A stretch of DNA of 64,000 bases from the NCBI GenBank assembly GCA_030390025.1, contig CM059431.1:144400001-144464000 (forward strand), in the 5' to 3' direction. A model generated the notes under the pieces. The model saw only the letters and a list, made by a program, of their open reading frames with translations. It searched no databases and was not told the DNA's origin. This document shows, piece after piece, positions 1,520 through 24,498 of this stretch. Both the position numbers and the translations under genes were made by a program. The stretch is from Squalus acanthias. Its lineage: Eukaryota. The number at the start of each line of letters is the position of its first letter. Positions within the stretch are counted from its first letter, which is position 1.

Positions 1520-1780
1520 ATAAGAATACATTTCTTCACTAAGGGGGTTGTGAATCTTCGGAAATCTCGACACCAAAGGGCTGTGGAGGCTCAGTCGTCG
1601 AATATATTCAAGACTGAGTTCAGTAGATTTTTGAACACTACGATAAACAAGGGATTTCAGGATCTGAAGGGAAGGTGGAATTGAGGTAGACGATCAGCCA
1701 TGATCTTATTGAATGGCGGAGAAGGCTCGAAGGGCCGTATGGCCTACTCCAGCTCTTAATTCTTATGTTCTGATGTTCTT
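1520..1780 (+). mobile_element. CR1 LINE 3' end
   Basis: gatcagccatgatcttattgaatggcgg...ggcctactcc...ttcttatgttct tail. Confidence 0.75.
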
Positions 1781-1866
1781 AAACGCCATTGTATCAGAAA
1801 GCAGAAACACAGTCAGGCAGTATTATACATTCTATTTTTGCATTTGAAATAGATTGTCAGGAGCTC

Positions 1867-2094
1867 ATGGATCAAGCTGTAAAAATTCTGAAGGAACTGT
1901 CAGCCGATGATCTGAAGAATTTCAGACAATTACTGGGAGATAAGGGAATCCCGGCTGGGCAAATCGAGAATGCTGACGCTTGTAAACTGGCAGAGCTGAT
2001 CAAGAAACATTTTCGGACCGACTCAGAGCGTTTGCATGTGATAAAACGTATTCTGGAGGACATTCCACGGATGGATTTGGTGGAAAAGTTGCAG
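1867..2094 (+). CDS. Coding exon 1: pyrin (PYD)-like death-fold domain
   Basis: Acceptor ...catttgaaatag at 1852, ATG at 1867, donor CAG|GTAATT at 2095. The pattern [45 protein letters not shown] fits the PYD consensus (L.eL...lkkFK..L..IP.g.le.Ad..dLa.ll..I...i.r.DL.e.L). The RxDL ending is also DED-like. Confidence 0.85.
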
Positions 2095-5000
2095 GTAATT
2101 CAAATTTTCCTCCTTTGCGATTTTGTCATGGTCACCCCATCACGACAAAGAATTGAGAATTGCAAGGCCTTGGTTTTGGAACTGTCAATCAGTGTAAGAC
2201 GAATTACCCATGAACCCTACCCGAAACACCTGGGCGTCACTCTGGACAGGACTCTCACCTACCGGCCTCATTTCACCAAAACCGGCCAAAAAAGTAAAAT
2301 AAACTGGGTGAACTTAGTCCGGAAACGTGCTGGAACGACATGGGGAGCACAGCCAGTTCACTTCGCACCTCAAGAGTAGGCCTGGTCTACTCTGCTGTCG
2401 AATACTGCTCTGCCTCATGGCCCTGTAGCCACCACACAAAGACCATGGACGTGCAGCTAAACGCTGCCATGAGGATGGTGTCAGGGATGCTCAATTCCAC
2501 TGCAACTGAGTCGCGCCTGGTGCTATCCTACATTGCCCCGCCTGCCAATCGCTGTGACACCTCCATGCTCCGTGAGATTGGCAAAAATGATGAGCAACAT
2601 CGACCTTACAATTCACAAAGACTTGAAAACCCACCACCAATCTTCTTAAAATCACACCGGCCATTCTGGGAAACGGCAGCCAATATTTATCCAGCTTGTA
2701 TCGACCCACCATCCAGATGGACGGAATCATGGGACACATGCAACATTAAGAACAAACGCCTCATCACTCACCCAACAGCAGTGGACCCGAGCTCCGACCT
2801 TCCTCGAAGATAGCGGTCAACCCAATCCGCACAGGACATGGACGATACAGCCACCTGCTCCCCAAGTGGAAGATAAGGGTTGACCAGAAGTGCGACAGTG
2901 GCCATGAGTCCCAGACCATCACACACATCACATCAACCTGTCTATTAAGAATTGTTAAGAAACGCACCTCATTTCCCCACTCGGCACCTCAGGAGGCAGT
3001 CGAATCGATAGCCAAACTAGACAGCCCATTATAAGCAATTCCCGTCATATGAAACAACAACAACTGCAGAGGAATATTACAGGATAAAAATATTGCTCGG
3101 TTGATTTAAAAGCTTTGATCAATAAGGAGTTTTGTGTTTTTTCAAAGATTCTCATTATGTGGGTTTCGCTGGCAAAGCCATCATTTAATGCCCTTGAGAA
3201 GTTAGTGGTGAGCTGCCGCTTGAGCTGCTGCAGTCCCTGTGGTGAAGATACTCCCGCTGTGCCGTTAGGTTGATTTCTATGATTGCGACGCAGCGACGAC
3301 GAAGGAACATCGATATATTGCCAAATCAGGATACCGTCTAAATTGGAGGGGAACTTGCAGGTGATGGTGGTTCGATGCACCTGCTGTCTTGTCCTTCTAG
3401 GTGGTAGAGGTCGCAGATCTGAGAGGTGCTGCTGAATCATTCTTGGCGAGTTACTGCAGTGCATCTTGTAGATGGTACGCACAGCAGCCACAGTACGCCG
3501 GTGGTGGAGGGACTAAATATTTACTTTGGTGGATGGGGTGCCAATCAAGAAGATTCTTATTTTCTGGATGTTATCGAGCTACTTGACTGTTGTTGGAGCT
3601 GCACTTATCCAGGCAACTGGAGAATATTACATCACACTCCTGACTTGTGCCTTGTAGATGGTGGAAAGACTTTGGAGAGTCAGGATGTGAGACACTTGCT
3701 GCAGAATACTTAGCCTCTGAACTGCTCCTGTGTCATTGCATTTATCTGGCTGTTACAATTGAGATGCTGCCCAAGGGTGTTGACGGTAGGGCAATTGGGC
3801 GCTGGAGATTACATTGAATGTCAAGGGGAGTTGGTCAGGCTCTCCATTGTTGGACATTGCCATTGGCCGGCACTTCTGCGATGCCACCGAATCGTTCTTG
3901 GGATGGAGCGATGCTGGCACTGTCAGTATTAGACTCCTATATTCCTCGGAGCAACTTGGGATGGCAATAAATACTGCGCTTCCCGTGTCGCCACACCGCA
4001 AGAGCAAATAAAAACAAGTACCGTGAGCAGTGGTCAGGCATTCCTGGGCTAAGTCATCCATCTTACACACCAGGATGGTTCTCATGAATGACCTTAATAA
4101 ACAAAAACGATTCCCGCCATAGTTAGGGTGGCCCTATTGCGAGAATCCCAGTTTAATTCCTTAGGGCAGGTAGATTAACTGGATATTAAATAGAGGTGTT
4201 CATTATTATGAAGGGTTTTGAAAAGAAAGAAAGGATGTTTTGCCTTTATATAGCGCCTTTCCCGAAGACAGGGCGTCTCAAAGCGCTTTACAGCCAATGA
4301 GGTATTGTTTAGAAGTGTAGTCGCTGTAGTAGTGCAGCGAACGTGACAGCCGATTTGCGCAGAGCAAGCTCTCACAAACTGCAATGGGATAATGATCAGA
4401 TAATCTGTTAATAGTGATGTTCGTTGAGGGATTATGAATGACTCATGCAGTAAACGAGTACTTGCCTGCTCTACTTCGAAATATTACGGTGGGATCTTTT
4501 ACGCCCACCTGAGAGAGCAGATGTGGTCTCGGTTTAACGTCTCAATCAGAAAGACGGCACCTCTGGAGTGAGACTTCAGCCTATGACCTATTAACTCAGA
4601 GGCCAGAGGGCTAACACTCAGCCATTGCGGACTCCTAGCGGAAATAATGACAAACTGTTTCCGTTAGCAGTTGGGCCGATAACCAAAAGGCACAGATTTA
4701 GGTAATTGGTAAAAGAACCAGAGGGGGAGGTGAGGTGATTTTTTTTTACGCAGAGAATTGTTCTGATCTGGAATGTACTGCATGAAAGGGTGGCAGAAGC
4801 ACTTTCATAGAATCATAGAAAGATACAGCACGGAAGGAGGCCATTTCGGCACATCATGTCCGCGCCGGCCAGCAAAGAGTATTCCAGCCTAATCCCACTT
4901 CCCAGCTCTTGGTCCGTAGCCCTGCAGATTAGAGAATCCCAAGTGCACATCCAAGTACATTTTAAATGAGGTTAGGGTTCCTGCCTCTACCACTCTTTCA

Positions 5001-8000
5001 GGCAGTGAGTTCCAGAATCCCACAGCCCTCTGGGTGAAGAAATTTCCCCTCAAATCTCCGCTATACCTTCCACCAATTACTTTAAATCTGTGCCCCCTGG
5101 TTTCTGACCCCTCTGCTAAGGGAAATAAACCCTTTCTATTCACTTTATCGATACCCCTCATAATTTGAGACACCAAAATAAGGTCTCCCCTAAGCCTCCT
5201 CTGTTCCAAGGAAAAGAAACCCAGCCTATCCAGTCATTCTTCTCTACTCCCGGCAACATCCTTGTAAATCTCCTCTGCACCCTCTCTATTGCAATCACAT
5301 ATTCCCTGTAATGTGGTGAACAGAACTGAACGCAGTACCCTAGCTGAGGCCTAACTAGTGTTTTATACAGTTGAATCATAACCCCCCTGCAATTGTACTC
5401 TATGCCACGGATAATACAGGCAAGCATTCCCTATACCTTCTTAACCACCTTATCTACCTGGCTTGCTACCTTCAGGGATCTGTGGACATGCACTCCAAGG
5501 TCCCTTTATTCCTCTACACTACTCAGTGTTTTATCATTTAATGTGTATTCCCTTTCCTTGTTAGCCCTCCCCAAATGCATTAACTCACACTTCTCCGGAT
5601 TGTGTTCCATTTGCCACTGCTCTGCCCACCTGACCAATTTTTTGATATCTTCCTGCTCTCTACAGCTTTCTTCTTCAGTATCAGCCACACAGACGATTTT
5701 ATATCATCTGCAAACTTCTTAATTATACCCCTTATATTCAAGTCTAGATCATTGATATGTACCACAAAAAACAAGGGAACTAGTACTGAGCCCTCTGGAA
5801 CCCCACTGGAAACAGCGTTCCAGTAACAAAAACACCCATCAACCATTACTCTCTGCTTCCTGTCTCCGAGACAGTTTTGAATCCAACTTGACACTTTGCC
5901 CTGGATCCCATAGTCTTTTAACTTCGTGACCAGTCTGCCATGTGGAACCTTATCAAAAGCCTTGCTACAGTCCATATACAATTCATCAAATGCATTATCC
6001 TCATATACCCTCCTTGTTACCTGCTCAAAAATTTCAATCAAGTTTGTCCGACACGAGCTTCCCTTAACAAATCCGTGCTGACTATCCTTGATTAATCTGT
6101 GTCTTTAGAAATGAAGGTTTAGCCTGTCCTTCAGAATTTTTTCCAATAATGTTCCCACCACCGAGGTTAGGCTGACTGACCAGTAATTACTCGGTCTATC
6201 CTTTGCTCCCTTTTTAAACAAGAATATCACTTTAGCATTCCTCCAGTCCTCCGGCACCACACCTGAAGCCAGAGAGGATTGAAAAATGATGGTCAGGGCC
6301 TCTGCTATTTCCTCTTTTGCTTCGCTTAACAGCCTGGGATATGTTTCATCCTGGCCTGGTTATTTATCCACTTTTACAGCTGCTAAACCACTTAATACTT
6401 CCTCTCTCACTATATTTATTTCATCTAATATTTCACATTCCTCCTCCCTGATAGCAGTGTCTGCTTCGCCCCTCTTCTTTGTGAAAACAGACGCAAAGTG
6501 TTCATTAACAACCCCACCAACGTCTCCGCCTCCACGCACAGATTACCCTCATGACCTCTAATATGCCCTACCCTTTCTTTAGTTATCCTCTTACTCTTAA
6601 TATATTTATAAAACATCTTTGGGTTTTCCTTGATTTTACTTGACAAGAATTTTTGCTGCTCTCTCTTTGCTTTCATTATATCATTTTTAATTGCACCCAT
6701 GCACTTTCTGTACTCCTGTAAAGACTTTGGAGTATTTAGCCCTCGGTATCTGTAATACGCCTTCCTTTTTTTCTTTATCCTACACTGTATGTCTCTAAAC
6801 ACCCAGGGGGCTCTCTATTTGTTAGTCCCACCTTTTTTCTTTAAGGGCACATCTTTGCTCTGAACCCTCACTATCTCATCCTTGAATGCCTCCCACTGCT
6901 CTGACACTGATTTACCTTCCAGTAGCTGTTTCCAGTCCACTATGGCTAAATCCCCTCTGAGCTAAGCTTAATTAGCTTTCCCCCTATTACTTTTATTTTA
7001 TTCATGGTCTATCCATGTCCTTTTCCATAACTACCTGAAATCTAACAGAATTATGGTCACTAGCACCAAAATGCTCCCCCACTGACACGCCTTCTACCTG
7101 CCCATCTTCATTCCCTAAAATTAAGTGCAGAACCGCCCCCTCACTTGTTGGGCTTGCTACCTACTGGCTAAAAAAATTCTCCTGGAGGCATTTTAGGAAT
7201 TCCGCACTCTCTATACCCTTCACACTAATTTTATACCTGTTAATATATGGGGTAGTTGCAACCCCTATCTAATACTGCCCTATAGTTTTTGCACTACTCA
7301 GAAATGTGTCTTCATATTTGTTCTTCTATCTCCCTCTCACTGTTTGGGGGTCTGTAGCACACTCGCAGCAGTGTGATCGCCCCTTTTTTGTTTTTCAATT
7401 CGACCCATATGGCCTCGTTTGATGATCCCTCCAACATATCATTCATTCTCACAGATGTGATAGCTTCTTTAATCAATACCGCGAACCCCCCTCCCTTTTT
7501 ACCTCCCTCGCTATCCCGTCTGATAGTTATATTTAGTATTAAATTTCAAAATTGGATTTGGATAAATACATGAAAAGGAATAAAAAAGGCTAGTCTATGG
7601 GGAAAGAGCAGAGGAGTGGGAATATTTGAACAGCTCTTTCAAAGAGCTGGAACGGATACGATGAGTCGAACGACTTCCTTCTGTACTGCATCATTCTTTG
7701 ATTTCACCCCCTATGTTCTTTACTGGTAATTTGTAATGTTTCTTTGAACCATCCATGAAGTGTGGTTTGAGCTATTTTCCTACTGCACCCTATCTCGGTT
7801 GTCGAAGATGCGGCCCTTTCATTCCTTCTGCCTTACTAATCGACACAACCGAAAACGACTTAGCTAAGTTGCAGTTTGGGAGCTAGCAATCATTAGAGGC
7901 GGTGCAAAGAAGGTTCACCAGATTGATTCCTATGATTAGTGGGTTGCCCTACGAGGAGAGATTGAGTCGATTGGGCCTGTACTCTCTGAAGTTTAGAAGA

Positions 8001-11000
8001 GTGAAAGGTGATCTCATTGAAACATATAAGACTCTGCGGGGGATTGACAGGGTAGATGCAGATAGGTTGTTTTCCCTGGCTGAAGAGTCTGGAACTAGGG
8101 GTCATAGTCACAGGATTCGGGGTCGGCCTTTTAAGACTGGAGGAATTTGTTCACTCACATGGATGTGAATCTTTGGAATTCTCTGCTCCAAAAGGATGTG
8201 AATGCATAGTCTTTCAGTTTATTCAAGGCGGAGATCCGTAGATTTTCAGACTCCAGGGGAATCCAGCGATATATGGAGATCGGGCGGGAAAGTGGAATTG
8301 TGGTTAAAGATGAATGAGACTGCAGCGGTTCAAGAGGGTGGCTCACCATCCATGTCTCAAGTGCAACTGGAGATGGGCAATAAATGCTGGCCTTGCCAGC
8401 GACGCCCACATCGCATGAACGAATTAAAAAAATATTTTAATGAATGGCCGCTCAGGCTCGAAGATCCGAATGGACTACTCCTGCTCCTATTTCGTATGAT
8501 CTTATCACTGAGTGGAGAGGGTCAGGTTACAAAGAGCAAACTCACCGTAACATAGCACAAACGGCGAATCCGTTTGTTGCAGTTTCACCCCATCTTTGCC
8601 CTCGCGGGTTTAATTCTGGTAGCACAGAAAACGACCTTAACGAAGCAGTGAGCTGCAAGTCCAAGGGAGTTGAGATAGCGCGAGGGATGCGGTCAGTGAT
8701 CGTGTTTTGGGCCAGTTTATTGTGTTTATGGACTAGGGATGTTAGTTCTGCGGGTCTCTCAGGCACTTAGCTGGCGGACTGAATTAGATTGCACAGAAGG
8801 TGCAAATCCCATGTTTTTTTCTACAAGGACCTGGCAAACCAGCCTTCTCATCAGCAAATGTGTTTTCAACTGGGACATCCTCCGCATTACTTCATGGGGG
8901 TGCATTTTAAATTTGAGCGAGGGTGTACATCGGGCGGTATAGAATTGACCCGATTTCCACGGAGGGGAAAATTGGGCGTGGTGTATAACGGGCGGTAAAT
9001 TCGATATTACGCGTTTTACATCACCGCACAAGGGCAGAATGAGCCCGTCGTGTTCAGGAGGAGGACGTGACTGCGATTGGATCTCCTTTTTCTTTACCAC
9101 TACCGTCAGTCTTTGCATACACTGATCTTATTTGGCGTAGGTCGGAGAATGATGATCTTGGGAACACTGACTGAATCAGTTCTTGATTTGTTTGGCGATC
9201 TGCAGTGCTCCCTCAAGCCTGCAATGGTGTGTTTTTTATTAGCAGTTGTTCGCTAGTTTCGTTGTTATGGAGTTGAATCCGCTTCCCACATAGGTGCATA
9301 ACACAAGCGAAATATTGCGGATACTGGAGATCTGGAATAAAAACAGGAAATGCTGGAAATACTCAGCAGGTCAGGCAGCATCTGTGGAGAGAGAGAGGAA
9401 CAGAGTTAACGATTCATGTTTGCGCACTCTTCGTCAGAGCTGGAAGATGTTAGAGATTTAATAGATTTTAAGCAATACAAAGACAGCGAAATGGGGGCAG
9501 GACAAGGGCAAAGGGAAAAGTCTGTGACAGGGTGGAGGGCCTGAGTGATTATCTGTCAAAAGGAATGAAGACAAAGAAGGTGTTGATGCAGCAAGAAAAT
9601 AAACAACAGCTGGGTCTAGAGGGGGTGTAGATGTTTACAGCAGAATAGCAAAGGGAGCGGGAAGGATCGACTATGATCATCTCTCACATCTACCAGGTCT
9701 GACGAAACGTCATCGACATGAAATATTAACTCTGATTCTCTCTACATATATGCTGAGTATTTCCAGCATTTCCTCTACGTAGGCAATGAGTTCGCAAACC
9801 CATCATGCCAATTTGTGCTTTTGAATTTATTAAGAAAAATCAAAATAGACTGGTATATCAGCAAGGACCTAGGCACCACTTCATAACCAAGTGTTTGATA
9901 ATCTCAGCCGTGCTGACTCTGCAATATCCTGCTCAGCAATGCCTGGGGACTCCAACCTATAACCGTTCCGCCAATTCTGGAACCTTGTACATCCCCCAAT
10001 CCCTTTCCCCCACCATTGGCGGCCGTGCCTTCAGCTGCCTAGTCCTTAGTATCTGAAATTCCCACTCTACACCTCGCCGTCTCTTTCCTTCTCTCTCCTC
10101 CTTTAAGACACTCCTTAAAACCTTATGGCCGAGACATTCGTATCGGGCGGTGGCGAGAAACGGGCGGTATCGGATCAGCCGCACGTTCTACGCAGCGCCT
10201 GATATTCAGTTCCGTTGACTGCAATAGAACTGCATATCTGGCGCTGCGTACAATGGGCGGTCGATCCGATACCGCCCGCTATGCGCCACCGCCCCAGACG
10301 AATTTCTAGCCAATGTTCTTGATCAGTGTTTCTAATGGCTGCTTCTTTATCACCGCGTTATTTCTGTCTGATTACACCTCTGTGAACCCTATTGTGACGT
10401 TTCTCCTACGTTTAAGAAGCGATATAAATGCAAGTTACATCTGCTCGAAGTTGGAAGAGCCTCACATGAGTCAAGTAACAGCCTGACGTAATCCTGCTCA
10501 GAGACCCATCATCCTAAATTCCATCCCACCGCAGGATAGAACTCCCAGAGGAAGAGAAACAATGGATTACAGTCTGGGAGTCTCAATATTGAATCGAAAC
10601 CCTTCACAAGTGTTTGTGAAGACACGTGCAATCCCACTGGCTTAGTACTGAGCTTCGCTGATGTCCTTATCTTTGCAGGGCAATGATGCACCTGATGGTC
10701 AGAAGAAGAAATCAGCAGAAGAATGTACCCTTATGTCACCAACCTGTCCAGAATTGATTGCTCCTCAGCAACGGGAGTCGGTAGAGATGCAGCCAACCGC
10801 GTCTGCAGGTGAGTACTCAAAGATTGTGCTGAATCTTCCTGCACCAGATATTTCTCGCATTCAGTAAGCTTTCATTCCCGAGTACACACGCAGCCAAGGT
10901 GCGCCATTGATGGAGAGAGCGGATGTTTACCATGGTGGAGGGGCTGCCGATCAAGCGAATTACTTTGACGTGGATGGCGTCAAGCGTCTTGCGTGTAGTT

Positions 11001-14000
11001 GCAGCTTCATCTATACCGGCCAGTGGAGAGTATTCCAGTACAGCCCTGACTTGTTCCTTGCAAGTGGTGGCGAAGTGTCTGTGGTGGAGTCCTGAGGTAA
11101 GCCACTCTCTACATAATAACCAGCTTATGACCTACTCCAGTAACCATGACATTTATGTGGCTCGTGCAGTTGAGTATCTGGCTAATGGTGACTCCCAGGT
11201 TATTGATGTTGGGCATTCGGCAATTTTAATGTCATCAATTGTCAAGGTGAAGTGGTTAGGCTCTCCCTTGCAGAAGATGATCATTGCCAGTGCATTACCA
11301 ATAATTTGTTATTGGGATGGGTGTGAAGTGGCAAGGCCGGCACTAGGATCCTAAATCCTTCGAGACAATTAAGAATGAGCAACACATACTGCCCTAACAG
11401 TGTCGGCACAACCCAAGAGCAAATAAAAACAAGGTCCATTAGTCGTCGTAAGGCTGTGTGTTCTGCTCCTTTTCCTAGACAGACAGACAGGCAGGCAGGC
11501 AGGGAGGCAGGTAGATTTTACATCAGATATATTATCTTAATATTTTATTCCTTTACGTTTCAGAAAGTCTTTGAATAAAACTGCTTTCATCAATGTTGAA
11601 ACTGTCCCATTCAATTTTTATATGACTGAAAAGCAGAATTATTGTCAATACTTTGATCATTTGTTTAGATGAAAGAAAATCGAAAGACTATGGTCGCAAA
11701 GAACAGCTGCGATATCCTTCTGTGAGTATTGAAACATCCCGATACAAAGCGGGAGCTGTTGTTGCTCTGCGAGCATTTACTGAGAAATGTCTTTGGTCAT
11801 CAGCCTGTCTCCCTTTTTTCACAATCAATTGAGACAATGGCAGAAAGTCAACACAAAATTGCTGTCATAAACATCCAATATATCATCCAATTTTAATTTT
11901 TCTGTAAGATGTGTGTGGGGACCCAATCTCTGGAGTTAATTCCCTAAACCCTTCTGTCACTCTAACCTATAAGCTGCTCCTTAACATCCACATCTATGAC
12001 AAAGCTCTCGGTCACCCCCTAATAATAACCCCTTCTTTTACTTGATGTCCATTTCTTTTCATTACGCCTCTGTGAAAAAAATGTTGTCAAATTATTCTAC
12101 ACTAAAGCCGTTATTTAATTGCAAGTTGTGGCTGTCCGTACTCAGCGTATTTAATATTACTCAAACCATTGTATAGTTGAGTCCATTCCTATTGAAACTT
12201 TATGAATCCATTATAGATTTAAGTGCCCATTCCTATATAAATGCTATTAATCCATTGTAGATTTATGTATAGATTACTAGATAAATTTTATAAAGCCATT
12301 GTAGATTTTTGTGTCCATTGTGTCCATAATTTTAAGCTAAGTGCTCATTCATATCAAGTGCTATCAATTCGTCTTGGATTTACGTGTCCATTGCTTTATA
12401 ATTGTAATTTAAGTGCCCAAACCTACATAAATGCGATCAATACAGTGTAGATGTATGTGTCCATAACTGTAATCTAAGTGCCTATTGCTATTACATAGGA
12501 TTACATAGAATATACAGCACAGAAACAGGCCATTCGACTCAATCCGTCTATGCCAGTGTTTATGCTTCACTCGAGCATCCTCCCGTCTTTCCTCATCTAA
12601 CCCTATCAGCTTAACCGTTTCTTCCATTCTCCCTCCTATGATTATCTAACTGCCCCTTAAACGCATCTATACTATTCGCTTCAACAACTCCATGTGGTAG
12701 CGCGTTCCACATTCTCACCACTCTCTGGGTCATGAAGTTTCTTCCGAATTCCCTATTTGATTTCTTGGTTATTATCTTATATTGATTGCCTGTAGTTTTG
12801 CTCTTCCGCAGAAGTGAAACACTCTCTCTGTGTCTTTTCTATCAAAACGTTTGCATGATTTTATAGACCTCTATTAGGCCACCCCTCAGCGTTCTCTTTT
12901 CAAGAGGTGTACCCTCGCGTTTCTGGTAAAATCCTTGTAAATCTTCTCTGCACCCTCTCCAGTGCCTCTATATCCTTTTTTATAATATGTCGACCAGAAT
13001 TGCAGACAGTACTTTAAGTGTGGTCTAACCAAGGTTCGATACAGGTTTAACATATCTTCACTACCTTTCAATTCTATCCCTCTAGAAATGAACTATACTG
13101 CTTGCTTTGCATTTTATGGCCTGTTAACCTGTGTCGATTTGTGTATTTGTACTCCTTTAAACCTGTGCTCCTCCACCCCATTTAGATTCTTATTTTCCAA
13201 GCAATATGTGACCTCGCTATTTTTCTTACCAAACTGTACTAACTCACATTTATCTGTGTTGAACTTCATTTGCCAATTATATGCCCATTCTGCAAGTTTA
13301 TTAATGACCTCCTGTAATTTGTTGCAGTCCCCCTCAGTATTTACTAACCCCCCAATTCGGCGTCGTCCAACAATTATAAATTGTATTTTTGTTTCCAAAG
13401 TCGAAATCGTTAATACAAATTGGGAAGAATAGTGGTCCCAGCACTGATCCTTTTGGAACACCATTTCCCAGCTTCAGCCACAATGAATAGCTACCCTTTA
13501 CCCCTACTCTCTGCTTTCTGTCTTCTTGCCAGCTATCTATCCATTCTGCTACTTTTCTCCTGACTCCGCATTTGCTGACCTTATTCATTATTCTATTATG
13601 TGTAACTTATCGAATGCCTTTTGAAAATCTAGGTAAATTACATCTACTACATTACCCCAGTCTACTCTCTCTGTTACCCATCAAAAATTCAAGTAGGTTG
13701 TTCAAGCAAGCCTTTCACTTTTGAAATCAATGCTGACTATTATTATATTTTTATTTTCTAGATGTTCTTCTATTTTCTCCTTTCGTAGGGATTCCATTAT
13801 TTTTCCTTTCACCGATGTTAAGCTGATTGGCTTATAGTTCCCTGGACATGTTCTAACCCCCCTTCCTAAATATAGGTATTACGTTAACTATCCGCTAGTC
13901 ATCTGGCACTACCGCTTTTTCTAACAAATTAATAAATATGTGTAGTAATGCGTCTACTATTTACTCCACAGATTCTTTTCAAATGTGCGAATGTAATCTG

Positions 14001-17000
14001 TCCAGACCAGGGGTTTTATACTCTTTAAGTTTCATGAATTTATTTAGTATATCTCCTCGTTTTATTTAAAATGCAATTAACTCATTACTAATCTCATCAT
14101 CGGATGTCATCTCCAGCTGTTCCATCTCCCTGGTAAATACTGAAGCAAAGTAATGATTTAAAATTTCTACCATCCCTCTATTGCTGCCTATGGTATTATC
14201 CTTTCCATCCCTAGTGGCACTACTCCCATCACGACCTTCCTCTTTTTATTCATGTGCCTGTAAAATATTTTCCTATTTTGTTTTATGTTCCTTGATAATT
14301 TAATGTCATAGTTCCTCATTGCCTTCCTAATTGTGTTTTTTTACTTCTCTCCTAATCCTGTCATATTCTCCCTGATCATGCTCTCCCCTGCTGTCCATGT
14401 ACTAAATGTATGCCTCGTTCCTTACCCTCAAATGTTCCCTTATGGTTTTATTCATCCACGGTGTCTCATTAGTGTTTAGCTTATTCGTGTTTATTAGCAG
14501 AATACATTTTTCCTGGTCTCTGTTAAACACCATTTTAAATGTTTCCCATTGCTGTGCTGCATCATTTTTTGTCAATAGTGTTGTACATTTTATTTTCCCC
14601 AGTTCTATTCTCAGCCCCTCAAAATCAGCTTTTCTGAAATCTATTACCCAAGTGTTTGTCATACCATGTCCTTCTCAATTATCATCTTAAAGCTATTTAT
14701 ATTTTGGTCACGAATGCCTAGATACCCCTACTTTTACTTTTCTTAACTGCTCTGGTTCATTCCCCTTTTACTTGATCCAATAGCCAATACTCCCTTGTTG
14801 TGCTTTTTACATATTGGGTTAGAAAGGAGTCCTGTACATCGTAGGAACTCCATTCCCTTATATTCTTCACCCCTTTTTTATCAATACATTGTAGATTTAA
14901 GTGCCCATTCACTATGTTTTGGAAAGCCAGTTTCTTTGCTGCAGCCCATTCATGAAGTGATCGTCTGCCATTTGTCTTTTTTTGGAGAAAGTACAATTTA
15001 TTTTAATCCACCGTGCATTTTCCGTCCCCAATGGCACTCTACCACAACAGTTTCTCCCCGCCAGTGACTCCCCACCACAGCGAGTAAATGGCCAAGTCCG
15101 GCTGCCCGACGCTTCGTGTGACCACTGGGAGTTTGCTAATCCATCTCAACTTCATTGTTGATTCTCCTGTTTAGTTTTGTTTCTGACCCTCAGCTTTTGC
15201 AAATTGTTCTTGGTGTGGTGATCATCATCTTGGCCACGACCTCGGTAATTGTGACGCCCCATCGACGGTTTTTACCTTTACGGATTCCATGGTGGTCTGG
15301 GGTTCTGGTAAGACTCTGCATTCAGGAATAGAATTATCTGCGTTTGGTTTCTCTATAGTGATGATGGACAGACTGCTCCACATGGCCTTTAAAGTCCTGT
15401 ATCAGTAAGATCATCGGACGATGTAATCAAAACTACCATCAAATATCACGAGTTTCACAGGAGTTTACCTGTGGCCGCTGGGCAACCCAACATTTTACAT
15501 AAACACGGGAGGTTACTAATCCACTTTATCTACAGCGAGAGAGAGAGACAGAGTGGGGCAGTGGGATTAATTTGGGATTGATGCAGGTCCATGTGGAGAG
15601 GTGGGACAGTGGGATCAGTTTTGGATTGATAAAGGTCTATAGGGAGAGCGCGGGGAAGTGGGATCGGTTTGGAATTGATAAAGGGCTATCTGGAGAGCGG
15701 GGCAATGGGATCAGTTTGCCACTGATACAGGACTCTGGGGAGAGAGTGCGGCAGTTGCATTAGTTTCGGATTGATGCAGGGCTATGTGAGAGATCGGCGC
15801 AATGGCAGTAGATTGGAATTGATACAGGACCATGGGAGACAGCGGGGCAGTGTATTTAGTTTGAGTTTGATACAGGAATATGGGAGAGAGCGGGACAGTG
15901 GGTTTAGTTTGGGATTATTACAAGGCAATGGTAGGGCGGCACAATGCGTTTAACTTGGAATTAATGCCGAGCTATGGGAGAGAGTGGGGCAGTGCGTTTA
16001 ATTTGGGATTGATACAGGACTATGGAAGACAGCAGGGCAGTGTGTTTAGATTGGGATTGATACACGTCTCTGGGCGAGAGCGGGGATGTTAGATTATTTG
16101 GGGATTGATACTGAGCTATGAGAGAAAGCAGTGCAGTGGGATTAGGTTGGGTTTGATGCAGGGCTATGAGAGAGGCGAGCGGTGGGATTCGGTTGAAATT
16201 GATACAGGACTATGGGAGAGAGTGGAACAGTGGAGTAAGTTTGAAATTGATACAGGGCTATGGGAGTGAGAAGAGCACTGGCATTCGTTTGGGATTGATA
16301 CAAAACTATGGTGAGGGAGCAGGGCAGTGGGATTATTTTGAGACTGATACAGGGCTATGGGGAGAGAGTGGGTTAGTGGGTTTAGTTTAGGATTGATATA
16401 AGGCTATGGGGGAGCGGTACAGTGGGATTATTTGGGGATTGATACTGGGTTATGGGAGAGAGCGGAGAACTGGGATTAATTTGTGACTGATACAGGACCA
16501 TGGGAGAGAGTGGAGCAGTGGGTTTAGTTTGGGATTAATACAGGTGTATGCGCGAGAGTGGGGAAGTGGGATTATTTTGGGATTGATGCTGGGCTATGAG
16601 AGAGGCGAACAGTGGGATTAGTTTGAATTTGATACAGAACTATGGAACAGAGTGGAGCGTTGGAATACGTTTGGGATTGACACAGGGCTGTGGGAGTGAG
16701 AGGAGCAGTGGAATTAGTTTGGGATTGATACAGGACTATGGGAGAGAGCGTTACAGCGAGATTATTTTGGAATTGAATCAGGACTATGGGAGAGGGCGGG
16801 GCTGTGGGTTTACTTTGAAATTGATACAGGACTATGTGGGATAGTGGGTCAGTTTGATTAATTTGGGATTAAAACAAGATTATGGGAGAGGGCGGGGCAG
16901 TGGGTTTAGTTTGAGATTGATACAGGATTATGGAAGAGGGCGGGGCAGTGGGATTAGTTTGGGATTGATACGGGACCATGGGAGAGAGCGGAGGAGTGGA

Positions 17001-20000
17001 TTTAGTTTAGGATTGATACAAGATTATGGGAGAGAGCGGGACAGTGGGATTAGTTTGGGATTGATACAGGACTATGGGAGAGAGCGTGGCAGTGGGTTTA
17101 GATTGGGATTGATACAGTATTATGGGAGAGAGCGGGGCAGTGGGATTAGTTTGGGATTGATACAGCGCTATGGGAGAGAGTGGGGCTGGTGATTTAATGT
17201 GGGATTGATTCAGGGCTATGTGCGTGAGAGGAGCAGTGGGATTATATTGGGAATGATACAAGGTTACGTGGAGAGCGGCACAATGGGATTATTTGGGATG
17301 GTTCTGGTAAGGAACTGCCAGAGGCACCAGAGGCCGAATGGCCTCCTTCTGTGCTACTACCCTCTGTAGTTCTGTGCTGAACTAGAATGTTCTGCTGAGG
17401 TGGAATCTCGACCTTTGCTCTCCATCCAGCGCCGGATGCAGGAGAGATCGAGGCTGAATTTGGAAACTCTAAATGAGAAGAGGTTTTCTTCCTCAGAAGT
17501 GCTAAATCTCAACCCGAACAGCACAAAATATTGCAAAATAAACTCCACAACTACATCAATTTATATAATTTAAATCAGACCACCTTTTAAGCGGATACAC
17601 AGGGGATCAAGGCAGTATTTTCTCAAATGTGTTTGTTTTCCTTTGTTGCAGTTTTCTGTTGTAGGAATGATGCCTTTATTGCCTCTCAAGAAGACTGAAA
17701 GATACAAGGTACACCTTATCCATGATATTCGGCTGCTTAAAATGATTTTCTATAGAAATAGCGCAAATTGGAGTTTAATATCTCCTTTAGTCGTCATTTC
17801 AGGATTATGTAATTTTCGATATTAGTTTTGAATGTGGAAAATATCCTTCTCCTGCTCTCTTCATCTCCAGCATATCTGGAAAGCTTCACCTTTGCGTCAA
17901 TGCATCACGTGAGAGCTTCCCGCTCGCCAGAGGATTGGGTGCAGGCTGGCCTGTCATACCGCGGAAGCTGCTCAGCTGCCCATCCCCATTGTGTGTTTCT
18001 CCGACCAGTTCAATCGGTGCAATCTCACGATCAGCGCCGTCAGTCCACGGACAGCAACATAGGACTGGGCGACCAAGGACACGCATTAAGTTTACAGTTC
18101 AGCGACGACTCCCACTGATGTCCCGAGACTGATCTTTGTTACTTCAGCCTTCCGAATATTAGCGCGTGTCATTCTGATTGCTTGCTCCTTTCAGATGGGT
18201 GTTGAATTTATTTTTTTCATTCTCGCGATGTAGGTCGCTGACAAGGCCGTTATATAATGGCTAGTTGCCCTGGAGAAGGTGCTGGTGGGCCTTCTTGTAG
18301 TGGTTATGATGGTCTGAGATAGGTTTACAATGTATGTATGTGAACGCACGAATTATAGTAAACAAGGTTAGTGAGCTGCAGGCGAAAATAGCCACATGGG
18401 AATATGATGTCGAAGCAAGAAAAAAGGGCAGGATTGAATATTAAATATTCCTGGATATTAGGTGTTCAGGAAAGAGAGTGAAGGAAAGATAGGAGGTGGT
18501 GTGGCGGTATTGGTTGAGGAAAATGTCACTGTGCAGGAGAGCGAGGATGTCCTGGAGGGGTCAAGGACACAATCTATATGGCTAAAGTTAAGAAATAATA
18601 GAGTTGCCATTACACTACCAGCTGTACTTTATAGACCACCAAATATTGGGGAAAGTATGGAGGAGCAAATTTGCAGAGAAATTACAAAGAGATGCAAAAA
18701 CTATAGAGTAGTGATAATGGGGGACTTCAACTATCCTATTATGGACTGGTATAGTAATAGTATAAAGGGGAGAGAGGGGGAATAATTACTGAAATGTGTT
18801 CAGGAGAAATTTCTTGATCAGTATTTTTCCGGCCCAACAAGGAAGGGGGCATTGCTGGATTTGATTCCAGGGAATGAGGTGGGTCAAGTGGAGCAAGTGT
18901 CCGTCGTGGAACATTTAAGGAAAAGTGATCATAGTATCATAAGGATTAGATTAGCTATGGAAGAGGACATAAAGCAATCGAGAGTAAAAACACTTAATTG
19001 GAGGAAGGCCAATGTCAGTGGGATGAGAACGGATCTGGCCCGGGTAAATTGGAATCAAAGATTGGCTGGCAAAACTGTAATGGAAAATGGGCTGCCTTTA
19101 ACGAGGAAATAATACAGGTACAGTCGAGGTACATTCCCACTAGTGGAAAAGGTATGCAAATAAAGACAGCGCTCCCTGGATGACGAGAGGGATACAGAGT
19201 AAGATGAAGCAGAAACAGAGCGCGTATGACAGATGTCATAAGAACATAAGAAGATAAGAAATAGGAGCAGGAGTAGGCCAATCGGCCCCTCGAGCCTGCT
19301 CCGCCATTCAATAAGATCATGGCTGATCTGATCCTAAGCGCCAATCTACTATCTACTATTCTAGAACCATCTCCTGCATCTAACAGAATTGCACACACGA
19401 AATAGGAGCAGAATCAGGCTACACGGTCCCTGGGCCCGCTCCATTACCCACAGGGCCATGACCGATCCGAACCTAGACTCATGTCCAAATTCCTGCCCGC
19501 TCCCCGTAACCCTTAATGCCCTTTACTTCTAGGAAACTGTCTATTTCTGTTTTAAATTTATTTAATGATGTAGCTTCTACAGCTTTTTGTGGCAGCATAT
19601 TCCATGGACCTACCACCCTCTGAGTGAAGTTGTTCCTCCTCATCTCAGTTTTGAAAGAGCAGCCTCTTATTCTAAGACTATGTCCCCTAGTTCTAGTCTC
19701 ACCCGTCATCGGGAACATCCTCCCCGCATCCACCCGATCCAACCCCTTCACAATCTTATATGTTTCAATAAGATCGCCTCTCATTCTTCTGAACTCCAAT
19801 GAGTAGAGCCCCAATCTACCCAACCTCTCCTCATATGACCACCCCCTCATCCCCGGGATTAACCGAGTGAACCTTTTTTGCACTGCCTCGAGAGCAAGGA
19901 TGTCTTTACTTAAGTAAAGACACCAAAACTGTATGCAGTATTCCAGGTGCGGTCTCACCAATACCTTGTACAACTGAAGCAATACCTCCCTATTTTTATA

Positions 20001-23000
20001 TTCTATCCCCCTAGCAATGAAAGTCAACATTCCATTTGCCTTCTTAATCACTTGCTGCACCTGCATACTAAACTTTTGAGTTTCGTGCACCAGGACCCCC
20101 AGATCCCTTTGCACTTCAGTACTCTCCAGTTTCTTGCCATTAAGATAATAAATTGCTCTAGGATTTTTCCTGCCAAAGTGCATCACCTCACACTTTCCAG
20201 TGTTGTATTCCATCTGCCAAATCTCTGCCCACTTACTTAGCCTGTCTATGTCCCCTTGCAGGTTTTTTATGTCCTCCTCACTCACTACTTTCCCTCCCAT
20301 CTTAGTACCATCTGCAAATTTTGATATGTTACATTTGGTCCCTTCCTCCAAATCGTTAATATAGATTGTAAAGAGTTGGGGACCCAGCACTGACCCCTGT
20401 GGAACACCACTAGTTACTGATTGCCAGTCTGAGAATGAACCATTTATCCCAACTCTTTGCTTTCTGTTAGATAGCCAATCCTCTATCCATGCCAGAATAT
20501 TACCCTCAATCCTGTGATTTTCTACCTAAAGCAATAATCTTTTGTGTGGCACCTTGTCAAATGCCTTTTGGAAGTCTAAATACACTACGTCCACTGGTTC
20601 CCCTTTATCCACTCTATATTAGAGCTACGCCGTTCAGAGGGTGATGTCAGGAATCACTATTTCACAGAAAGTGTAGTGGAAATCTCGATGTCGCTCCCAA
20701 AAGGCTGTGGATGCTGGGGGTCAATTGGAGCTTTCAAGCCTGAGATGGATTGATTTTTGTTATGTAAGGATTGGGAGCTAAAGCCGGAAATTGGACTTGA
20801 GGTACAGATCAGCCACAACCTGAATTAATGGCGCAACAGTCTAGAGGGACTGTGTGGCCTCCGCCTGCTGCAATGCTTTAGCATTAGGAATCTAGATACT
20901 GAAATCCCATACAGCTATTTAAAGGGTTTGTTATCACCGTCTCAGATACATTTCTGGCGTTGATCCATTCCATCTCCAGTTCTTGTCTCACACCCAAACT
21001 ACATATGGGAATAAAATGTATCAATTCAGGTCAGCACTGTAGCCATGTAATCTTGTCTATCGCTCTTCAAAACCTCACTGGGCTGTGAAGTACTTGGTGT
21101 GCTAGCTCATTACTATAAAGGTTAATGAACGATAGTTACTCACAAACGCTATTTTCTTATGATACTTGTGTTAATCGACGTGAGAGATACTGCTGGGGAT
21201 TGGAACACCTGGAATTTTAGAGATCGAGCTTCTGAATGCAAGCACTCACAGTCAGATAGACCACAGCTGGATAAAGGTGAAGCCTGTCTCTTAATCTGTC
21301 ACCACAATGTGTCTCATTACCAACCTCAGTGGGTCGTTTGATCAATTTGTTCCCCTATCGCTCTACTGCAGCTGACAGGAAATGGATTCGTACAGCACAG
21401 AATGAGGTCATTCGGCCCATTGGGCCTGTACTGGTTCTTTTTAACGATCTATCCAATTAGTCCCACTACCTCTTCCCTTTCCACATAGCCCTGGTAAGTT
21501 TTCCCCTCCAACTATTTATCTCATTCTCTTTTGAAAGTTATTATTCAATCTACTTCTACTACCCTGAGAGGCAGAGCTTTCCAGATCGTAACAACACGTT
21601 GTGTAAAACCGTTCTCCTCCTGTCGCCTCTGGTTCTTTTGTCAATGATCTTATATCTGTGACCTGTGGTTACCGATCCACCTGCAACTGGAATTAGTTTT
21701 TTTTCCCGAGCGACACCAACAAAACGCCTCATAAATGTTAACACTTATATTAAATCTCCCCTTAAACTTCTCTGCTCTAAGGAGAATAATCCCAGCTTCT
21801 CTAGTCTCTCCACATAACTGAAGTCTCTCATCCCTGATATCATTCTGGTAAACCTCCTCTGTACCCTCTCTAAGGCCTTGACCTCTTTCCTAAAGTGTGG
21901 TGGCCAGAATTGGACGCAATACTCCAGCAGATACATTACAATTAGCATAGAATCAAAGACACCAATTTGGGGCGGGGCGATGTGGGCGTCGCAGTTAATA
22001 GTGAGGAAGACTGTGAGACACTACAATAAAATATCAATAAACTTGCTTAATGGGAAAATGAATTTCGATATAGATAAGTGTGAGGTGGTGTATTTTGATG
22101 GGAAGAAAAAGGAGGCCTCACACTCCTTGGATAATAAGAGCCTTATAGGTGTAAAGACAAGTGGTGAAAGGATATGGGATACCAAAAGACAACTCACTAA
22201 TGTAAAGACGCAGGTCAACACGTCCTTCAAATTCAAACAAAGCGAGGCCTTCATTTCTAGATTTGAAAGGCAGTGAAGTCATTTAAAATTATTGAACTTT
22301 GGTTAGAACCCACGTTGTGTACTGTCCACAGTTCTGGTCACCGTATTTTTAAAAAAGGTTATAAATGCATGGAGAAGGCGCAAAAAAGATTAACAAGGAT
22401 GATACTAGAACTCAAAGGTTATAATTTTCAGGAAAGACTGAATAAGCTGGGGCTCTTTACTCTAGAAAAGAAAAAGCTGAGAGTTGCCTAACAAAGGTTT
22501 TTAAAGTTATGAAGGGTTTTGAGAGGGTAGATATGGAGAAAATGTTTTCACTTGTCGGAGAGACCAAAACCAGGGGCCAAAAATATAGAAATATTACTAA
22601 TCAATCAGTAGGGAATTTAGGAGAAACTTCTTAACTCAGAGAGTGGTTGGAATGTGAAAAACACTAGCACATGGATTGGTTGAGGCCAATAACATAATTA
22701 TTTAAGGGGAAGCTAGATAAGCACTTCAGGGAGAGAGAGACAGAAGGATATGCTGATAGTCTTAGATGAAGAGGGATGGAAGGAGGATCGTTTGTTGCAT
22801 AAACATCGGCATGGGTCAGTTAGTCCAAATGGACTGTTTCTCTGCTGTACATTCCATGTAATTTTGTGTAAAGAAACAGGAGTAGGCAATTCAAACCCAG
22901 CAGCCTGTTCCAAGATTCAGTTAGATCATGGCTGATCTGTACCTTAACACAATCACTTGCTATCACTACGGGCTGAATTTGACCTCAATTGTCAGAGATA

Positions 23001-24498
23001 AATGTTTCGATATCCAACCTACTGGGTCAACTCTGTGGAGAATTTCTCACATCTAGATGTTACTTTTACCAAGAGAAGTTTTTTTATGTAAGGTTCTGGT
23101 GGCCGTTGCACTGCGAGATAATTGTAGAAACACTAACCAGTGATTAACCATCTCGTTTTCAGTTGAATCTTATACTTGGCTCGAACATATTTGGCTTGAT
23201 ATTGGCTCTAACATCATTGGGATTATCAATCTGGAATGGACATAACCAACCATCGGAATGTAAGGTGAGAAAATTATGTTTCCCCATTGAATGAATTTAT
23301 CCAAAGTGGAAATTGTGGATCAATTAGAAATAATTTAAATCATTTGACTGAGTCACTTCTTTAGATATGAAAGGTTGATATCTTCCTCGTATTAATTGGT
23401 GGCAGTTTTTGGCTCCCCGTACACCGACGCTTTGAATTTAAAATTCTCATCCTCGTGCTCAAATCCCTCCAAGGCCTCGCCCATCCCTATTTCTGTAACC
23501 TCCTCCAGCCTTACAACCCTCATGAGATCTCAGCTCTTCCAACTTTGGCGCTTGTCCATCCCCCACTCTTATCCCACCATTGGCCGCCGTGCCTTCAGCC
23601 GCCTATGCCCTGGGTCCCTCCCCCCCCCCCCCCACCCCACACACACACAAACCTCTCCGCCTTTCCATCTTTGCTCACCTCGTTAACCAAGCTTTTGGTC
23701 ACATGTTCTAATATCTCCTTTAAAGGCTCGGTGCCCAATTTTTTCTTATTTGCGTGTCTTTGAAGGACCTTGGGACATTTGACTACGTTAAAGGCGAAAT
23801 ATAAATTCAAGTTGTTGTTTTTGTGCGATAGTATCCAACGGGTGTTAACGAGTCGGCAGCCGGCTTTACATATCTCCCAATTTTGAATTCTCTTGAAGTC
23901 ACGGAGAGATGTAAATCGTTCGGCTGACTCGCTATCATCAGTTGTATACCGTCGCAAAATCTCAACATTTACCCCATTGGGAATGAACAATGCAGGCTGT
24001 TGAAATGGACCAGCGCACAGAGAAACGATGGGAAAGTGATTCCCAATGGCTGAGGAATGCTCTGCCTAAAAAGCATCGCCTGAGTTTCCCTTAATTGAAA
24101 TCAACGGAAAGGAAATTCCGTAGTGAAGTATAAATGGTGGCCGATCCGATATCGTCAGCTGCAAACCATCGTCAGAAGTTAAAATCCACAACCCCTCCCG
24201 CTCCGCCCACTGTTGTATCCCAATGAAGGCACCAATTCTGCCCTGTCTCTCAGTGGTGATGTTCACCAAGTTCACTTTAAACAAGCTGTTGTCTGCGAGA
24301 TCAATGTGCCTCCCAGTGGAATATATTCAGCTCATTCAGGGCCCTGTTTCTCCTCCCTTGCAGGATTACTTGACCGCCTTCCATTGGCTGATACTCGTGT
24401 TCCTTCTCCTGCAATTGATGCTCTCTATCTGGAACATCTTTGTCATCAGATTCTGGTTGAACAAGGGAGAAAAAGCTAGAAGTTCTCCGCATCCGTGA
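1867..24498 (+). CDS. Spliced gene join(1867..2094,10679..10808,11669..11721,15194..15307,17652..17708,23163..23264,24364..24498): pyrin-like domain + MS4A/CD20-like tetraspan protein, 272 aa
   Basis: All six introns are GT-AG, mostly with pyrimidine-rich acceptors. Phases 0,1,0,0,0,0 chain without a stop; 819 nt ending in TGA at 24496-24498. Protein: [272 protein letters not shown]. Confidence 0.75.
2170..3045 (+). mobile_element. 5'-truncated Vingi/Ingi-clade non-LTR retrotransposon, frameshifted
   Basis: [49 protein letters not shown], and a degenerate C-terminal CCHC-like [15 protein letters not shown]. Confidence 0.7.
3150..4010 (-). mobile_element. Decayed non-LTR retrotransposon 3' region (CR1 group)
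   Basis: Minus ORF ..[25 protein letters not shown]. Related pieces at ~10890-11430; the 5' endonuclease fragment at 31911-32510 may be the same group. Confidence 0.6.
4225..4632 (-). mobile_element. tRNA-derived Deu-type SINE
   Basis: Reverse complement has tggctgagtgttag head, gtgccgtctttctgattgagacgttaaaccgag core and aaggcgctatataaa tail. Confidence 0.7.
4806..7525 (-). mobile_element. CR1 LINE, ORF2 (RT and part of endonuclease) with stops and frameshifts
   Basis: [42 protein letters not shown]; (ttctatga)n tail at 4806. Confidence 0.9.
7884..8505 (+). mobile_element. CR1 LINE 3' fragment
   Basis: [34 protein letters not shown]. Confidence 0.85.
9308..9775. mobile_element. Penelope-like relic with inverted termini
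   Basis: gaaatgctggaaatactcagc at ~9347 and its inverted copy gctgagtatttccagcatttc at ~9752; same family as 24558-24690 and 43116-43325. Confidence 0.55.
10127..10311. mobile_element. Palindromic MITE (PIF/Harbinger-like termini) inserted in an L2 tail
   Basis: GGCCGAGACATTCG..GGGCGGTGGCG ... CGCCACCGCCC..CGAATTTCTAGCC; self-complementary along most of its length. Confidence 0.65.
10679..10808 (+). CDS. Coding exon 2: polar linker
   Basis: tccttatctttgcag|GGCAAT... GCAG|GTGAGT; 130 nt, phase 0 to 1, open frame [11 protein letters not shown]...TASA. Confidence 0.75.
11669..11721 (+). CDS. Coding exon 3: juxtamembrane segment before TM1
   Basis: atttgtttag|ATGAAAG... TCT|GTGAGT; 53 nt, phase 1 to 0, (D)[17 protein letters not shown]. 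Confidence 0.75.
12490..14865 (-). mobile_element. CR1 LINE, decayed
   Basis: [35 protein letters not shown]; attacatagg tail. Confidence 0.85.
15194..15307 (+). CDS. Coding exon 4: MS4A-like TM1, loop and start of TM2
   Basis: ttttgtttctgaccctcag|CTTTTG... CTG|GTAAGA; 114 nt; [14 protein letters not shown]...IPWWSGVL matches the MS4A QI.iG and P.W.G motifs. Confidence 0.85.
15545..17300 (+). repeat. 48-bp G-rich minisatellite, about 36 units
   Basis: Unit GGGAGAGAGCGGGGCAGTGGGATTAGTTTGGGATTGATACAGGACTAT; ends in a CR1 tail (ggccgaatggcctccttctgtgct). Confidence 0.9.
17652..17708 (+). CDS. Coding exon 5: MS4A-like TM2 end and intracellular loop (57 nt)
   Basis: ttttcctttgttgcag|TTTTCT... 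[28 protein letters not shown], same size and phase as the FIISGSLS..K exon typical of MS4A genes. Confidence 0.8.
17850..18080 (+). pseudogene. Probable decayed Ig/TCR V-set segment
   Basis: Across frameshifts: SSISG / [14 protein letters not shown] / PSPLCVS / [22 protein letters not shown], where TAG GAC TGG each differ by one base from Y-Y-C codons. Confidence 0.4.
18315..19236 (+). mobile_element. CR1 LINE endonuclease region, decayed
   Basis: [28 protein letters not shown] motifs. Confidence 0.85.
19237..20615 (-). mobile_element. Young 5'-truncated CR1 LINE
   Basis: Uninterrupted 303-aa RT C-terminal ORF 19479-20390; (ttcttatg)n tail. Confidence 0.9.
21390..21932 (-). mobile_element. 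CR1 LINE 3' fragment
   Basis: [29 protein letters not shown]. Confidence 0.8.
21950..22870 (+). mobile_element. CR1 LINE 3' fragment
   Basis: [29 protein letters not shown]1 3' UTR. Confidence 0.8.
23163..23264 (+). CDS. Coding exon 6: MS4A-like TM3 and second extracellular loop
   Basis: Branch-point-like CACTAAC at 23131, tctcgttttcag|TTGAAT... AAG|GTGAGA; 102 nt; [24 protein letters not shown] matches MS4A sLg.Ni.sai.A..gi.l. Confidence 0.85.
24364..24498 (+). CDS. Coding exon 7: MS4A-like TM4, short tail and stop
   Basis: ctgtttctcctcccttgcag|GATTAC...; [31 protein letters not shown].. matches MS4A TM4 (llvf..LEf.i.i); TGA at 24496. Confidence 0.85.
   Translation, partial: DYLTAFHWLILVFLLLQLMLSIWNIFVIRFWLNKGEKARSSPHP

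Follow-up and report, generated by a model that had tools for sequence, protein, structure and literature searches.

A stretch of 64,000 nucleotides from the spiny dogfish Squalus acanthias (contig CM059431.1, positions 144,400,001 to 144,464,000, forward strand; 'the window' below) contains a gene in which a pyrin domain (PYD) is joined to a four-segment membrane protein of the MS4A/CD20 type. Directly behind the PYD lies a conserved DxxD-G motif, a predicted caspase-3/7-type site. The architecture, the exon structure, the conservation in seven other shark species and the conservation of the motif are observed; the PYD fold is taken from an orthologue model. We propose that the protein is a tether switched by caspases. 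While intact, it would keep its PYD clustered at the cytosolic face of a membrane; a cut by effector caspases behind Asp82 would free an 82-residue pyrin-only fragment and end the platform. As a whole this model is plausible, with somewhat less than an even chance of being correct.

A pyrin domain on an MS4A-type tetraspan

The gene has seven coding exons on the plus strand (1867-24498), which when joined and translated give an open frame of 272 residues without internal stop. All introns are of the GT-AG type with matching phases, none of the 12 splice dinucleotides being damaged in these 22.6 kb. The protein consists of the PYD, a linker of 61 residues and four hydrophobic segments. The features are as follows (TM, transmembrane segment).

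1853..1866, plus strand: segment of 14 nucleotides before the ATG; all 8 genome copies have the AG acceptor (here at 1851-1852)
1867..2094, plus strand: coding exon 1, pyrin domain (residues 1-76) with a short H2-H3 loop and RxDL in helix 6; match to Pfam PYRIN, best PDB sequence match the NLRP6 PYD
10679..10808, plus strand: coding exon 2, linker residues 77-119, poorly conserved (21-30% identity to 10 orthologues) and predicted disordered
10685..10699, plus strand: DAPD-G (residues 79-83), conserved motif directly after the PYD, predicted caspase-3/7-type site
11669..11721, plus strand: coding exon 3, basic juxtamembrane segment with a conserved K-x-Y-G...L-R (residues 125-134)
15194..15307, plus strand: coding exon 4, TM1, short outer loop and start of TM2 (PWWSGVL), with an MS4A-type exon end; taken by itself, the exon matches Pfam CD20 with E 0.011
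17652..17708, plus strand: coding exon 5 (57 nucleotides), rest of TM2 and the basic inner loop KKTERYK (17688-17708)
23163..23264, plus strand: coding exon 6, TM3 and a short second outer loop
24364..24498, plus strand: coding exon 7, TM4, short basic tail and stop codon

A preliminary description of this DNA gave the coordinates 1867-15307. That span holds four of the seven coding exons; the end of TM2, KKTERYK, TM3 and TM4 lie at 17652-24498, and the DxxD-G motif does not appear in that account. Its other structural statements agree with the joined protein, which has the four hydrophobic segments, the basic inner loop, a polar linker of about 60 residues between PYD and TM1 (residues 77-137) and no signal peptide (best 11-residue hydropathy 0.39 in the first 40 residues). 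The last point is limited to the model starting at 1867, because the acceptor 14 nucleotides before the ATG allows an upstream exon. The phase of this acceptor would permit such an exon to be coding; none was identified. For one candidate, a 5' exon that would end at 1449, the donor is present in this copy only.

The 8.6-kb junction between exons 1 and 2 is predicted from orthologous RefSeq models that contain both halves in one chain. Among the matches listed for three same-species RNA runs against 1700-18000, mostly repeat-derived contigs, no exon junction was seen, which is no evidence either way. The PYD exon had no RNA match in the same-species runs; this counts neither for nor against it. 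Skipping of exon 2 would join exons 1 and 3 to a 102-residue PYD-only product with an early stop, and a PYD-less RefSeq isoform of Chiloscyllium punctatum (X3, P0131) appears to result from loss of exon 2 with reading in a different frame.

Exon 1 matches Pfam PYRIN (PF02758) with an E-value of 6.2e-14 and 52.4 bits (cut-off 22.9). Identity as a death effector domain (DED) was rejected: the DED score of 28.4 bits is below the cut-off of 35.9, and the first DED appears only at rank 31 of the Foldseek matches. The AlphaFold model of the white-shark orthologue has a predicted six-helix N-terminal domain (pLDDT 70-86). With this model, the top 10 Foldseek matches were all PYD chains, although with weak E-values (0.03 or above); TM-scores by target against isolated PYD chains were 0.68-0.78, and the nearest solved structures were the PYDs of NLRP6, NLRP4, NLRP12 and NLRP3. 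A long H2-H3 loop is regarded as a hallmark of PYDs (PMC11874512). The loop of the window PYD is 5-7 residues shorter than in NLRP6 and NLRP3 and is thus not of the long type. A short loop is not exclusive to non-PYDs, since AIM2 aligns with the window PYD over equal lengths.

The four hydrophobic segments have hydropathy peaks (19-residue Kyte-Doolittle) of 2.66, 1.34, 1.74 and 2.53, the proline-rich TM2 being the weakest. Lys and Arg number 12 on the side predicted to face inwards with the N terminus vs four on the other side, and the N terminus is very probably cytoplasmic. These counts and the hydropathy are compatible with four TM segments and both termini inside. Two orthologues score above the cut-off (27.9 bits) of Pfam CD20 (PF04103), P0007 with 34 bits and P0003 with 31.8 bits; window exon 4 alone reaches 16.2 bits, below the cut-off. 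Four of eight CD20-family loci examined in this genome, lying on C2617 and C5, end an exon at PWW(S/T/G)Gxx with a phase-0 intron as exon 4 does, and in two of these four a 57-nucleotide exon starting with Phe follows, matching exon 5. Profile comparison with one such locus gave a probability of 86% over 17 columns. The nearest Atlas clusters for the TM half are MS4A/CD20-like (0.88, a lead only), there is a weak match to Fc-epsilon-RI beta (E 0.24), and no MS4A chain was among the Foldseek matches listed for the white-shark orthologue model. The TM half is the most conserved part of the protein, with 38 of 124 columns invariant.

Orthologues were retrieved with a profile of six genome PYD copies, which gave 116 matches among 1.84 billion representative proteins. 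PYRIN and CD20 were found in one chain in three of the 20 matches scanned with Pfam (Heterodontus, Carcharodon and Chiloscyllium; 'uncharacterized' in RefSeq). A second search, in which the best 8000 candidates were scored, revealed 12 proteins from seven species and three shark orders: Heterodontus, Carcharodon, Cetorhinus, two Chiloscyllium, Hemiscyllium and Stegostoma, all named 'uncharacterized' in RefSeq. No match from rays or chimaeras was among these 8000 candidates, which does not settle the range limit. Word-seeded searches among longer proteins with the PYD exon or with the ASC-like PYD on C21 (see below) gave no match, a failure of sensitivity since the profile search recovered orthologues. 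Over the full length, identity of the window protein to 10 orthologues is 45-55% in the PYD, 21-30% in the exon-2 linker and 49-82% in TM1-2. Pfam matches, frame, orthologues, fold model, intron positions and charge bias together uphold the earlier suggestion of a membrane-tethered, cytosol-facing PYD on an MS4A-type tetraspan, and the same architecture is kept in the seven shark species.

The DxxD-G motif and a possible caspase switch

Within exon 2, four of 43 columns are invariant among six lineage representatives (D79, D82, G83 and P105), and DxxD-G supplies three of them. The motif DxxDG stands 14 residues past RxDL in 11 of 12 orthologous proteins and DG in all 12, the exception being one Hemiscyllium paralogue with YELDG (Tyr at P4). 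These 12 proteins represent 11 genes, as two are isoforms of one gene; the isoforms P0003, P0006, P0118, P0119 and P0134 and the PYD-less P0131 were left out. Positions P3 and P2 vary among the orthologues (AP, VP, EL, EH). As a control, we inspected the 25 residues that follow each of the 281 PYDs of 96 unrelated proteins retrieved in the same search: DxxDG occurred once and DxxD[GSA] five times. The window protein contains no DxxD other than DAPD, and all six copies of exon 2 in the genome retain this motif. It is located past helix 6 in a region predicted to be disordered (pLDDT below 50 for residues 81-149 of the orthologue model). At the level of sequence and model, the protein presents the conserved DxxD in an exposed loop that is expected of a caspase-3/7 substrate. 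A reading of LRYPSL as an immunoreceptor tyrosine-based inhibitory motif was rejected, since white, basking and zebra shark have Asn in place of the Tyr.

Caspases favour Gly at P1'. Caspase-domain exons are present in this genome (28 matches, not sorted into caspase-3/7 orthologues). DxxD is the shared consensus of caspase-3 and caspase-7, and DMPD, with Pro at P2, is cut in GSDME (PMC10942788). Cleavage of the window protein by caspase-3/7 is predicted and appears probable. A cut after Asp82 would leave a bare PYD of 82 residues, extending about six residues beyond the domain, and an ordinary-looking MS4A protein.

Given cleavage, we somewhat favour the direction in which the uncut form is active and the freed PYD is a competitor resembling the pyrin-only proteins (POPs). 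Homo- and heterodimers as well as clusters are known from MS4A proteins (PMC11663944). Single PYDs, which originate from duplicated exons, act as competitors of nucleation (PMC7555848).

Two other outcomes of a cut have to be considered. The membrane might keep the PYD inactive, and the caspase cut would then free it to polymerise and nucleate an adaptor, coupling apoptosis to inflammatory signalling. The fragment would be a clean PYD with about six extra residues, and removal of a fusion partner often triggers death-fold polymerisation (PMC11874512). However, a steric block of the PYD would be unlikely with a flexible linker of 61 residues, and several filament-interface charges are missing from the window PYD, which makes this course improbable. 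Alternatively, the PYD could serve as a cap or docking site whose removal leaves an active channel or pro-death effector in the membrane. The p20 fragment of BAP31 is a precedent: removal of the cytosolic domain by caspase-8 renders BAP31 pro-apoptotic (PMC3742741). Cation conduction is known for some members of the MS4A/TMEM176 group (PMC11663944). In the PYD-MS4A proteins conservation is highest in the TM half, and two Heterodontus paralogues are nearly alike outside the PYD. The cut lies 55 residues from TM1, however, and the TM model is too poor to judge such an activity. We give this explanation little credence.

Candidate partners, gene copies and points against the proposed switch

In the preliminary description, clustering of the tetraspan was supposed to seed filaments of ASC or of a PYD-caspase, making the protein a transmembrane inflammasome sensor; DxxDG would then be incidental or a late off-switch. 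We compared the ASC interface positions E13, K21, K26, R41, D48, D51 and E80, hand-mapped via the mouse ASC, NLRP6 and NLRP3 sequences. ASC specks are disrupted by E13R, D51R, K26A and R41E (PMC12832225). The window PYD keeps three of the seven charged positions and its orthologues two to four, while NLRP3 and NLRP6 keep six. At the positions of E13 and D51 the charge is reversed in the window PYD, and K26, R41 and D51 are kept in none of 11 family PYDs. The window PYD has Lys9 and Gln32, in common with two sibling copies, where 10 of 10 orthologues have an acidic and a basic residue. We take positions 9 (that of ASC E13) and 32 to equal D15 and K39 of AIM2 by hand mapping; in these terms the orthologues keep AIM2-like interface residues (acidic 9 and G31-K/R32 in 10 of 10, acidic 25 in 11 of 11). 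In AIM2, D15R abolishes nucleation and K39E impairs the protein, and ASC is nucleated via a hydrophobic type I interface (PMC4646227). The charge comparison is a weak test because the shark ASC-like PYD itself keeps three of seven and AIM2 uses a hydrophobic interface.

Three loci outside the window are of interest as partners.

C28:27225233-27229612 (L043), minus strand: PYD plus death-domain adaptor, like coelacanth and zebrafish zgc:174906 and snake 'FADD-like' proteins
C15:86153212-86172000 (L045:3212-3457, L046:4267-4725, L047:1662-2198): PYD+HIN (AIM2-like) locus
C21:11856995-11857267 (L050), minus strand: ASC-like PYD, with a CARD exon cluster 0.3-1.5 Mb away on the other strand

The PYD on C21 has mouse ASC as its best PDB match (E 3e-5). 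No CARD was found within 137 kb downstream of it, no PYD within 30-40 kb upstream of four ASC-like CARD loci (chosen from 20 of 51 CARD matches inspected), and no caspase exon near any PYD in the genome search. Neither a PYD+CARD gene nor a PYD-caspase could be assembled, the searches for PYD, CARD and caspase exons giving lower bounds only. Complex prediction for the window PYD with the C21 PYD, run without alignments and with controls not folded, scored 0.17 vs a mark of 0.34, which speaks neither for nor against binding. ASC as partner is unconfirmed and not supported so far. What stands of the nucleator proposal is the true PYD fold, with its likeness to NLRP6, NLRP4, NLRP12 and NLRP3, besides the AIM2-like residues of the orthologues and the ASC-like PYD on C21; the seeding of ASC or a PYD-caspase gained nothing from the ASC-type charges or the gene searches, and we regard the proposal as unlikely. 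The decoy alternative given in the same description fits the window copy at least as well.

The profile of the PYD-MS4A family scores the C28 PYD at 40.0, the C15 PYD at 30.5 and the ASC-like C21 PYD at 7.2 bits; in sequence, the C28 PYD-death-domain and C15 PYD-HIN proteins are closer to the family than the C21 PYD. No paper was found under the name zgc:174906. At C15, the PYD exon (Pfam E 1e-15) is followed 11 kb further on the same strand by a HIN-200 exon (Pfam E 1.3e-16), the sole HIN match in the genome, whose best PDB match is the HIN domain of mouse AIM2 (E 5.8e-11). The locus thus has the appearance of a shark gene of the AIM2/PYHIN type. The origin of PYHIN genes has been placed in therian mammals (PMC13253634). 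The PYD-death-domain adaptor, the PYD-HIN protein and the ASC-like PYD are all candidate partners. A bolder form of our proposal would make the protein the first multi-pass PYD protein and a shark-specific, caspase-gated membrane switch that acts via the PYD-death-domain adaptor or the AIM2-like PYD-HIN protein, not ASC. By cutting the tether, effector caspases would determine if a dying cell sends inflammatory signals, and exchange of PYD modules among paralogues would alter specificity. This bolder form we consider doubtful.

The genome search gave at least 11 PYD exons: eight of the PYD-MS4A family and one each with a death domain (C28), with HIN (C15) and ASC-like (C21). Three full-length copies were found, two of which carry stops, on C7 (stop in exon 2 and frameshift in exon 1) and on C3741 (stop in exon 6). 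In addition there are five PYD exons without a TM exon nearby, three of them followed by an exon-2 copy, and three stand-alone TM4 exons. Genome copies d1 and d2 differ by 24 non-synonymous changes and one synonymous change; d1 is broken. Divergence of the PYD exon equals that of the upstream flank (55/204 vs 147/632, p 0.30). The two Heterodontus paralogues agree at 44 of 76 residues in the PYD and at 175 of 183 in the rest of the protein. Judged by sequence, the PYD changes fast and can be exchanged as a module, a pattern known from immune families with birth-and-death evolution.

The family may be functional elsewhere while the window copy, as one paralogue of a birth-and-death array, is drifting or acts as a constitutive membrane decoy, without regulated signalling. 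This would account for two of three full-length copies being broken, for orphan PYD and TM4 exons, for a PYD exon that diverges like its flank and for the copy-specific K9 and Q32. On the other hand, the frame and 12 splice dinucleotides are intact and the core PYD, the motif and the TM invariants are kept, and we rate this explanation the least probable of those discussed.

Several points weigh against the caspase-switchable tether. The direction of the switch is our inference. A DxxD may escape a given caspase, as human GSDME is not cut by caspase-7 (PMC10942788). The motif was chosen after inspection of the alignment, the sequences are related (about four independent lineages) and the motif stands at an exon start, so that the Fisher values for its enrichment are optimistic. 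The TM half of the orthologue model is of low confidence (pLDDT 40-70, pTM 0.29). In the tree the PYD-MS4A family is placed near PYD-death-domain and PYD-HIN proteins with weak support (88/81, 84/75), and sequence likeness does not fix a binding partner. The ratio of non-synonymous to synonymous rates (dN/dS) of the PYD exon is 0.82-1.11 against deeper genome copies, which may themselves be pseudogenes. In view of this ratio and of the two closest full copies, which are broken, the window copy may be under relaxed selection.

Tandem PYD-exon 2-PYD arrays without TM exons were observed at C7:141955614-142013398 (minus strand) and C7:144471310-144493332 (plus strand). Given their splice phases, these arrays could yield a poly-PYD read in frame, in which every linked PYD is followed by DAPD-G; one of the PYDs begins with ATC and one contains a stop. 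A broken NACHT-LRR (NLR-like) gene lies near an orphan TM4 exon (C7:145333836-145339803). Within the window, introns 1 and 3 contain decayed fragments which we take to be LINE-like reverse transcriptase. Minisatellite arrays are located at 15550-17260, 27892-31788, 54647-55112 and 62099-63165 (periods 48, 33, 42 and 14).

Relation to known systems

No description of a PYD-MS4A/CD20 fusion was found in the literature searched, subscription journals and supplements being outside its scope. In the available portions, 'pyrin', 'CD20' and 'MS4A' are absent from the main text of PMC11788884, whose domain-pair supplement covers ghost shark only, and 'CD20' is absent from PMC11874512. PYDs are known mainly from soluble inflammasome proteins (PMC11874512), and in an MS4A phylogeny dogfish MS4As are not restricted to blood (PMC2826416). 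RefSeq already contains the fusion, under the label 'uncharacterized'; the conserved DxxD-G caspase-type motif is new. With a PYD placed on a tetraspan, sensing at the membrane would be connected to death-fold signalling in the oldest jawed-vertebrate lineage. The motif makes a vague model testable by one mutation (D82A) and suggests a way in which apoptosis could be coupled to inflammation in sharks.

With the MS4A proteins CD20 (MS4A1) and Fc-epsilon-RI beta (MS4A2), the window protein has in common four hydrophobic segments, the N-in/C-in charge bias, the exon end and the 57-nucleotide exon. It differs in the N-terminal PYD, the very short second outer loop and tail and the proline-rich TM2 end; no immunoreceptor tyrosine-based activation motif was seen. 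Its gene is on a different contig from the other CD20-family matches of this genome. NLRP3, NLRP6 and AIM2 likewise have an N-terminal PYD of the same fold, and clustering could oligomerise all of them. These proteins are soluble and clustered via NACHT or HIN-DNA, whereas the window protein is a tetraspan in which ASC-type charges are largely lost. In MAVS and the death receptors a death-fold domain is held at the membrane via a long linker, and MAVS is silenced when proteases cut it off the membrane; these carry a CARD or death domain and a single-pass anchor, unlike the window protein.

The predicted cleavage product, a bare PYD, resembles POP1-3, and stand-alone PYD exons produced by duplication are found close by. 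In primates the POPs are encoded by genes of their own (PMC7555848), whereas the fragment proposed for the window protein would be released from a membrane precursor by proteolysis. BAP31 is also a multi-pass membrane protein; a caspase excises its cytosolic domain, which flips its role (PMC3742741). It has a 'vDED' coiled coil and no death fold (PMC3742741), its sequence is unrelated and its sites are those of caspase-8. The window protein belongs to both the PYD and the MS4A families; its status as an inflammasome sensor is not established, and it is a variant of the membrane-tethered death-fold proteins.

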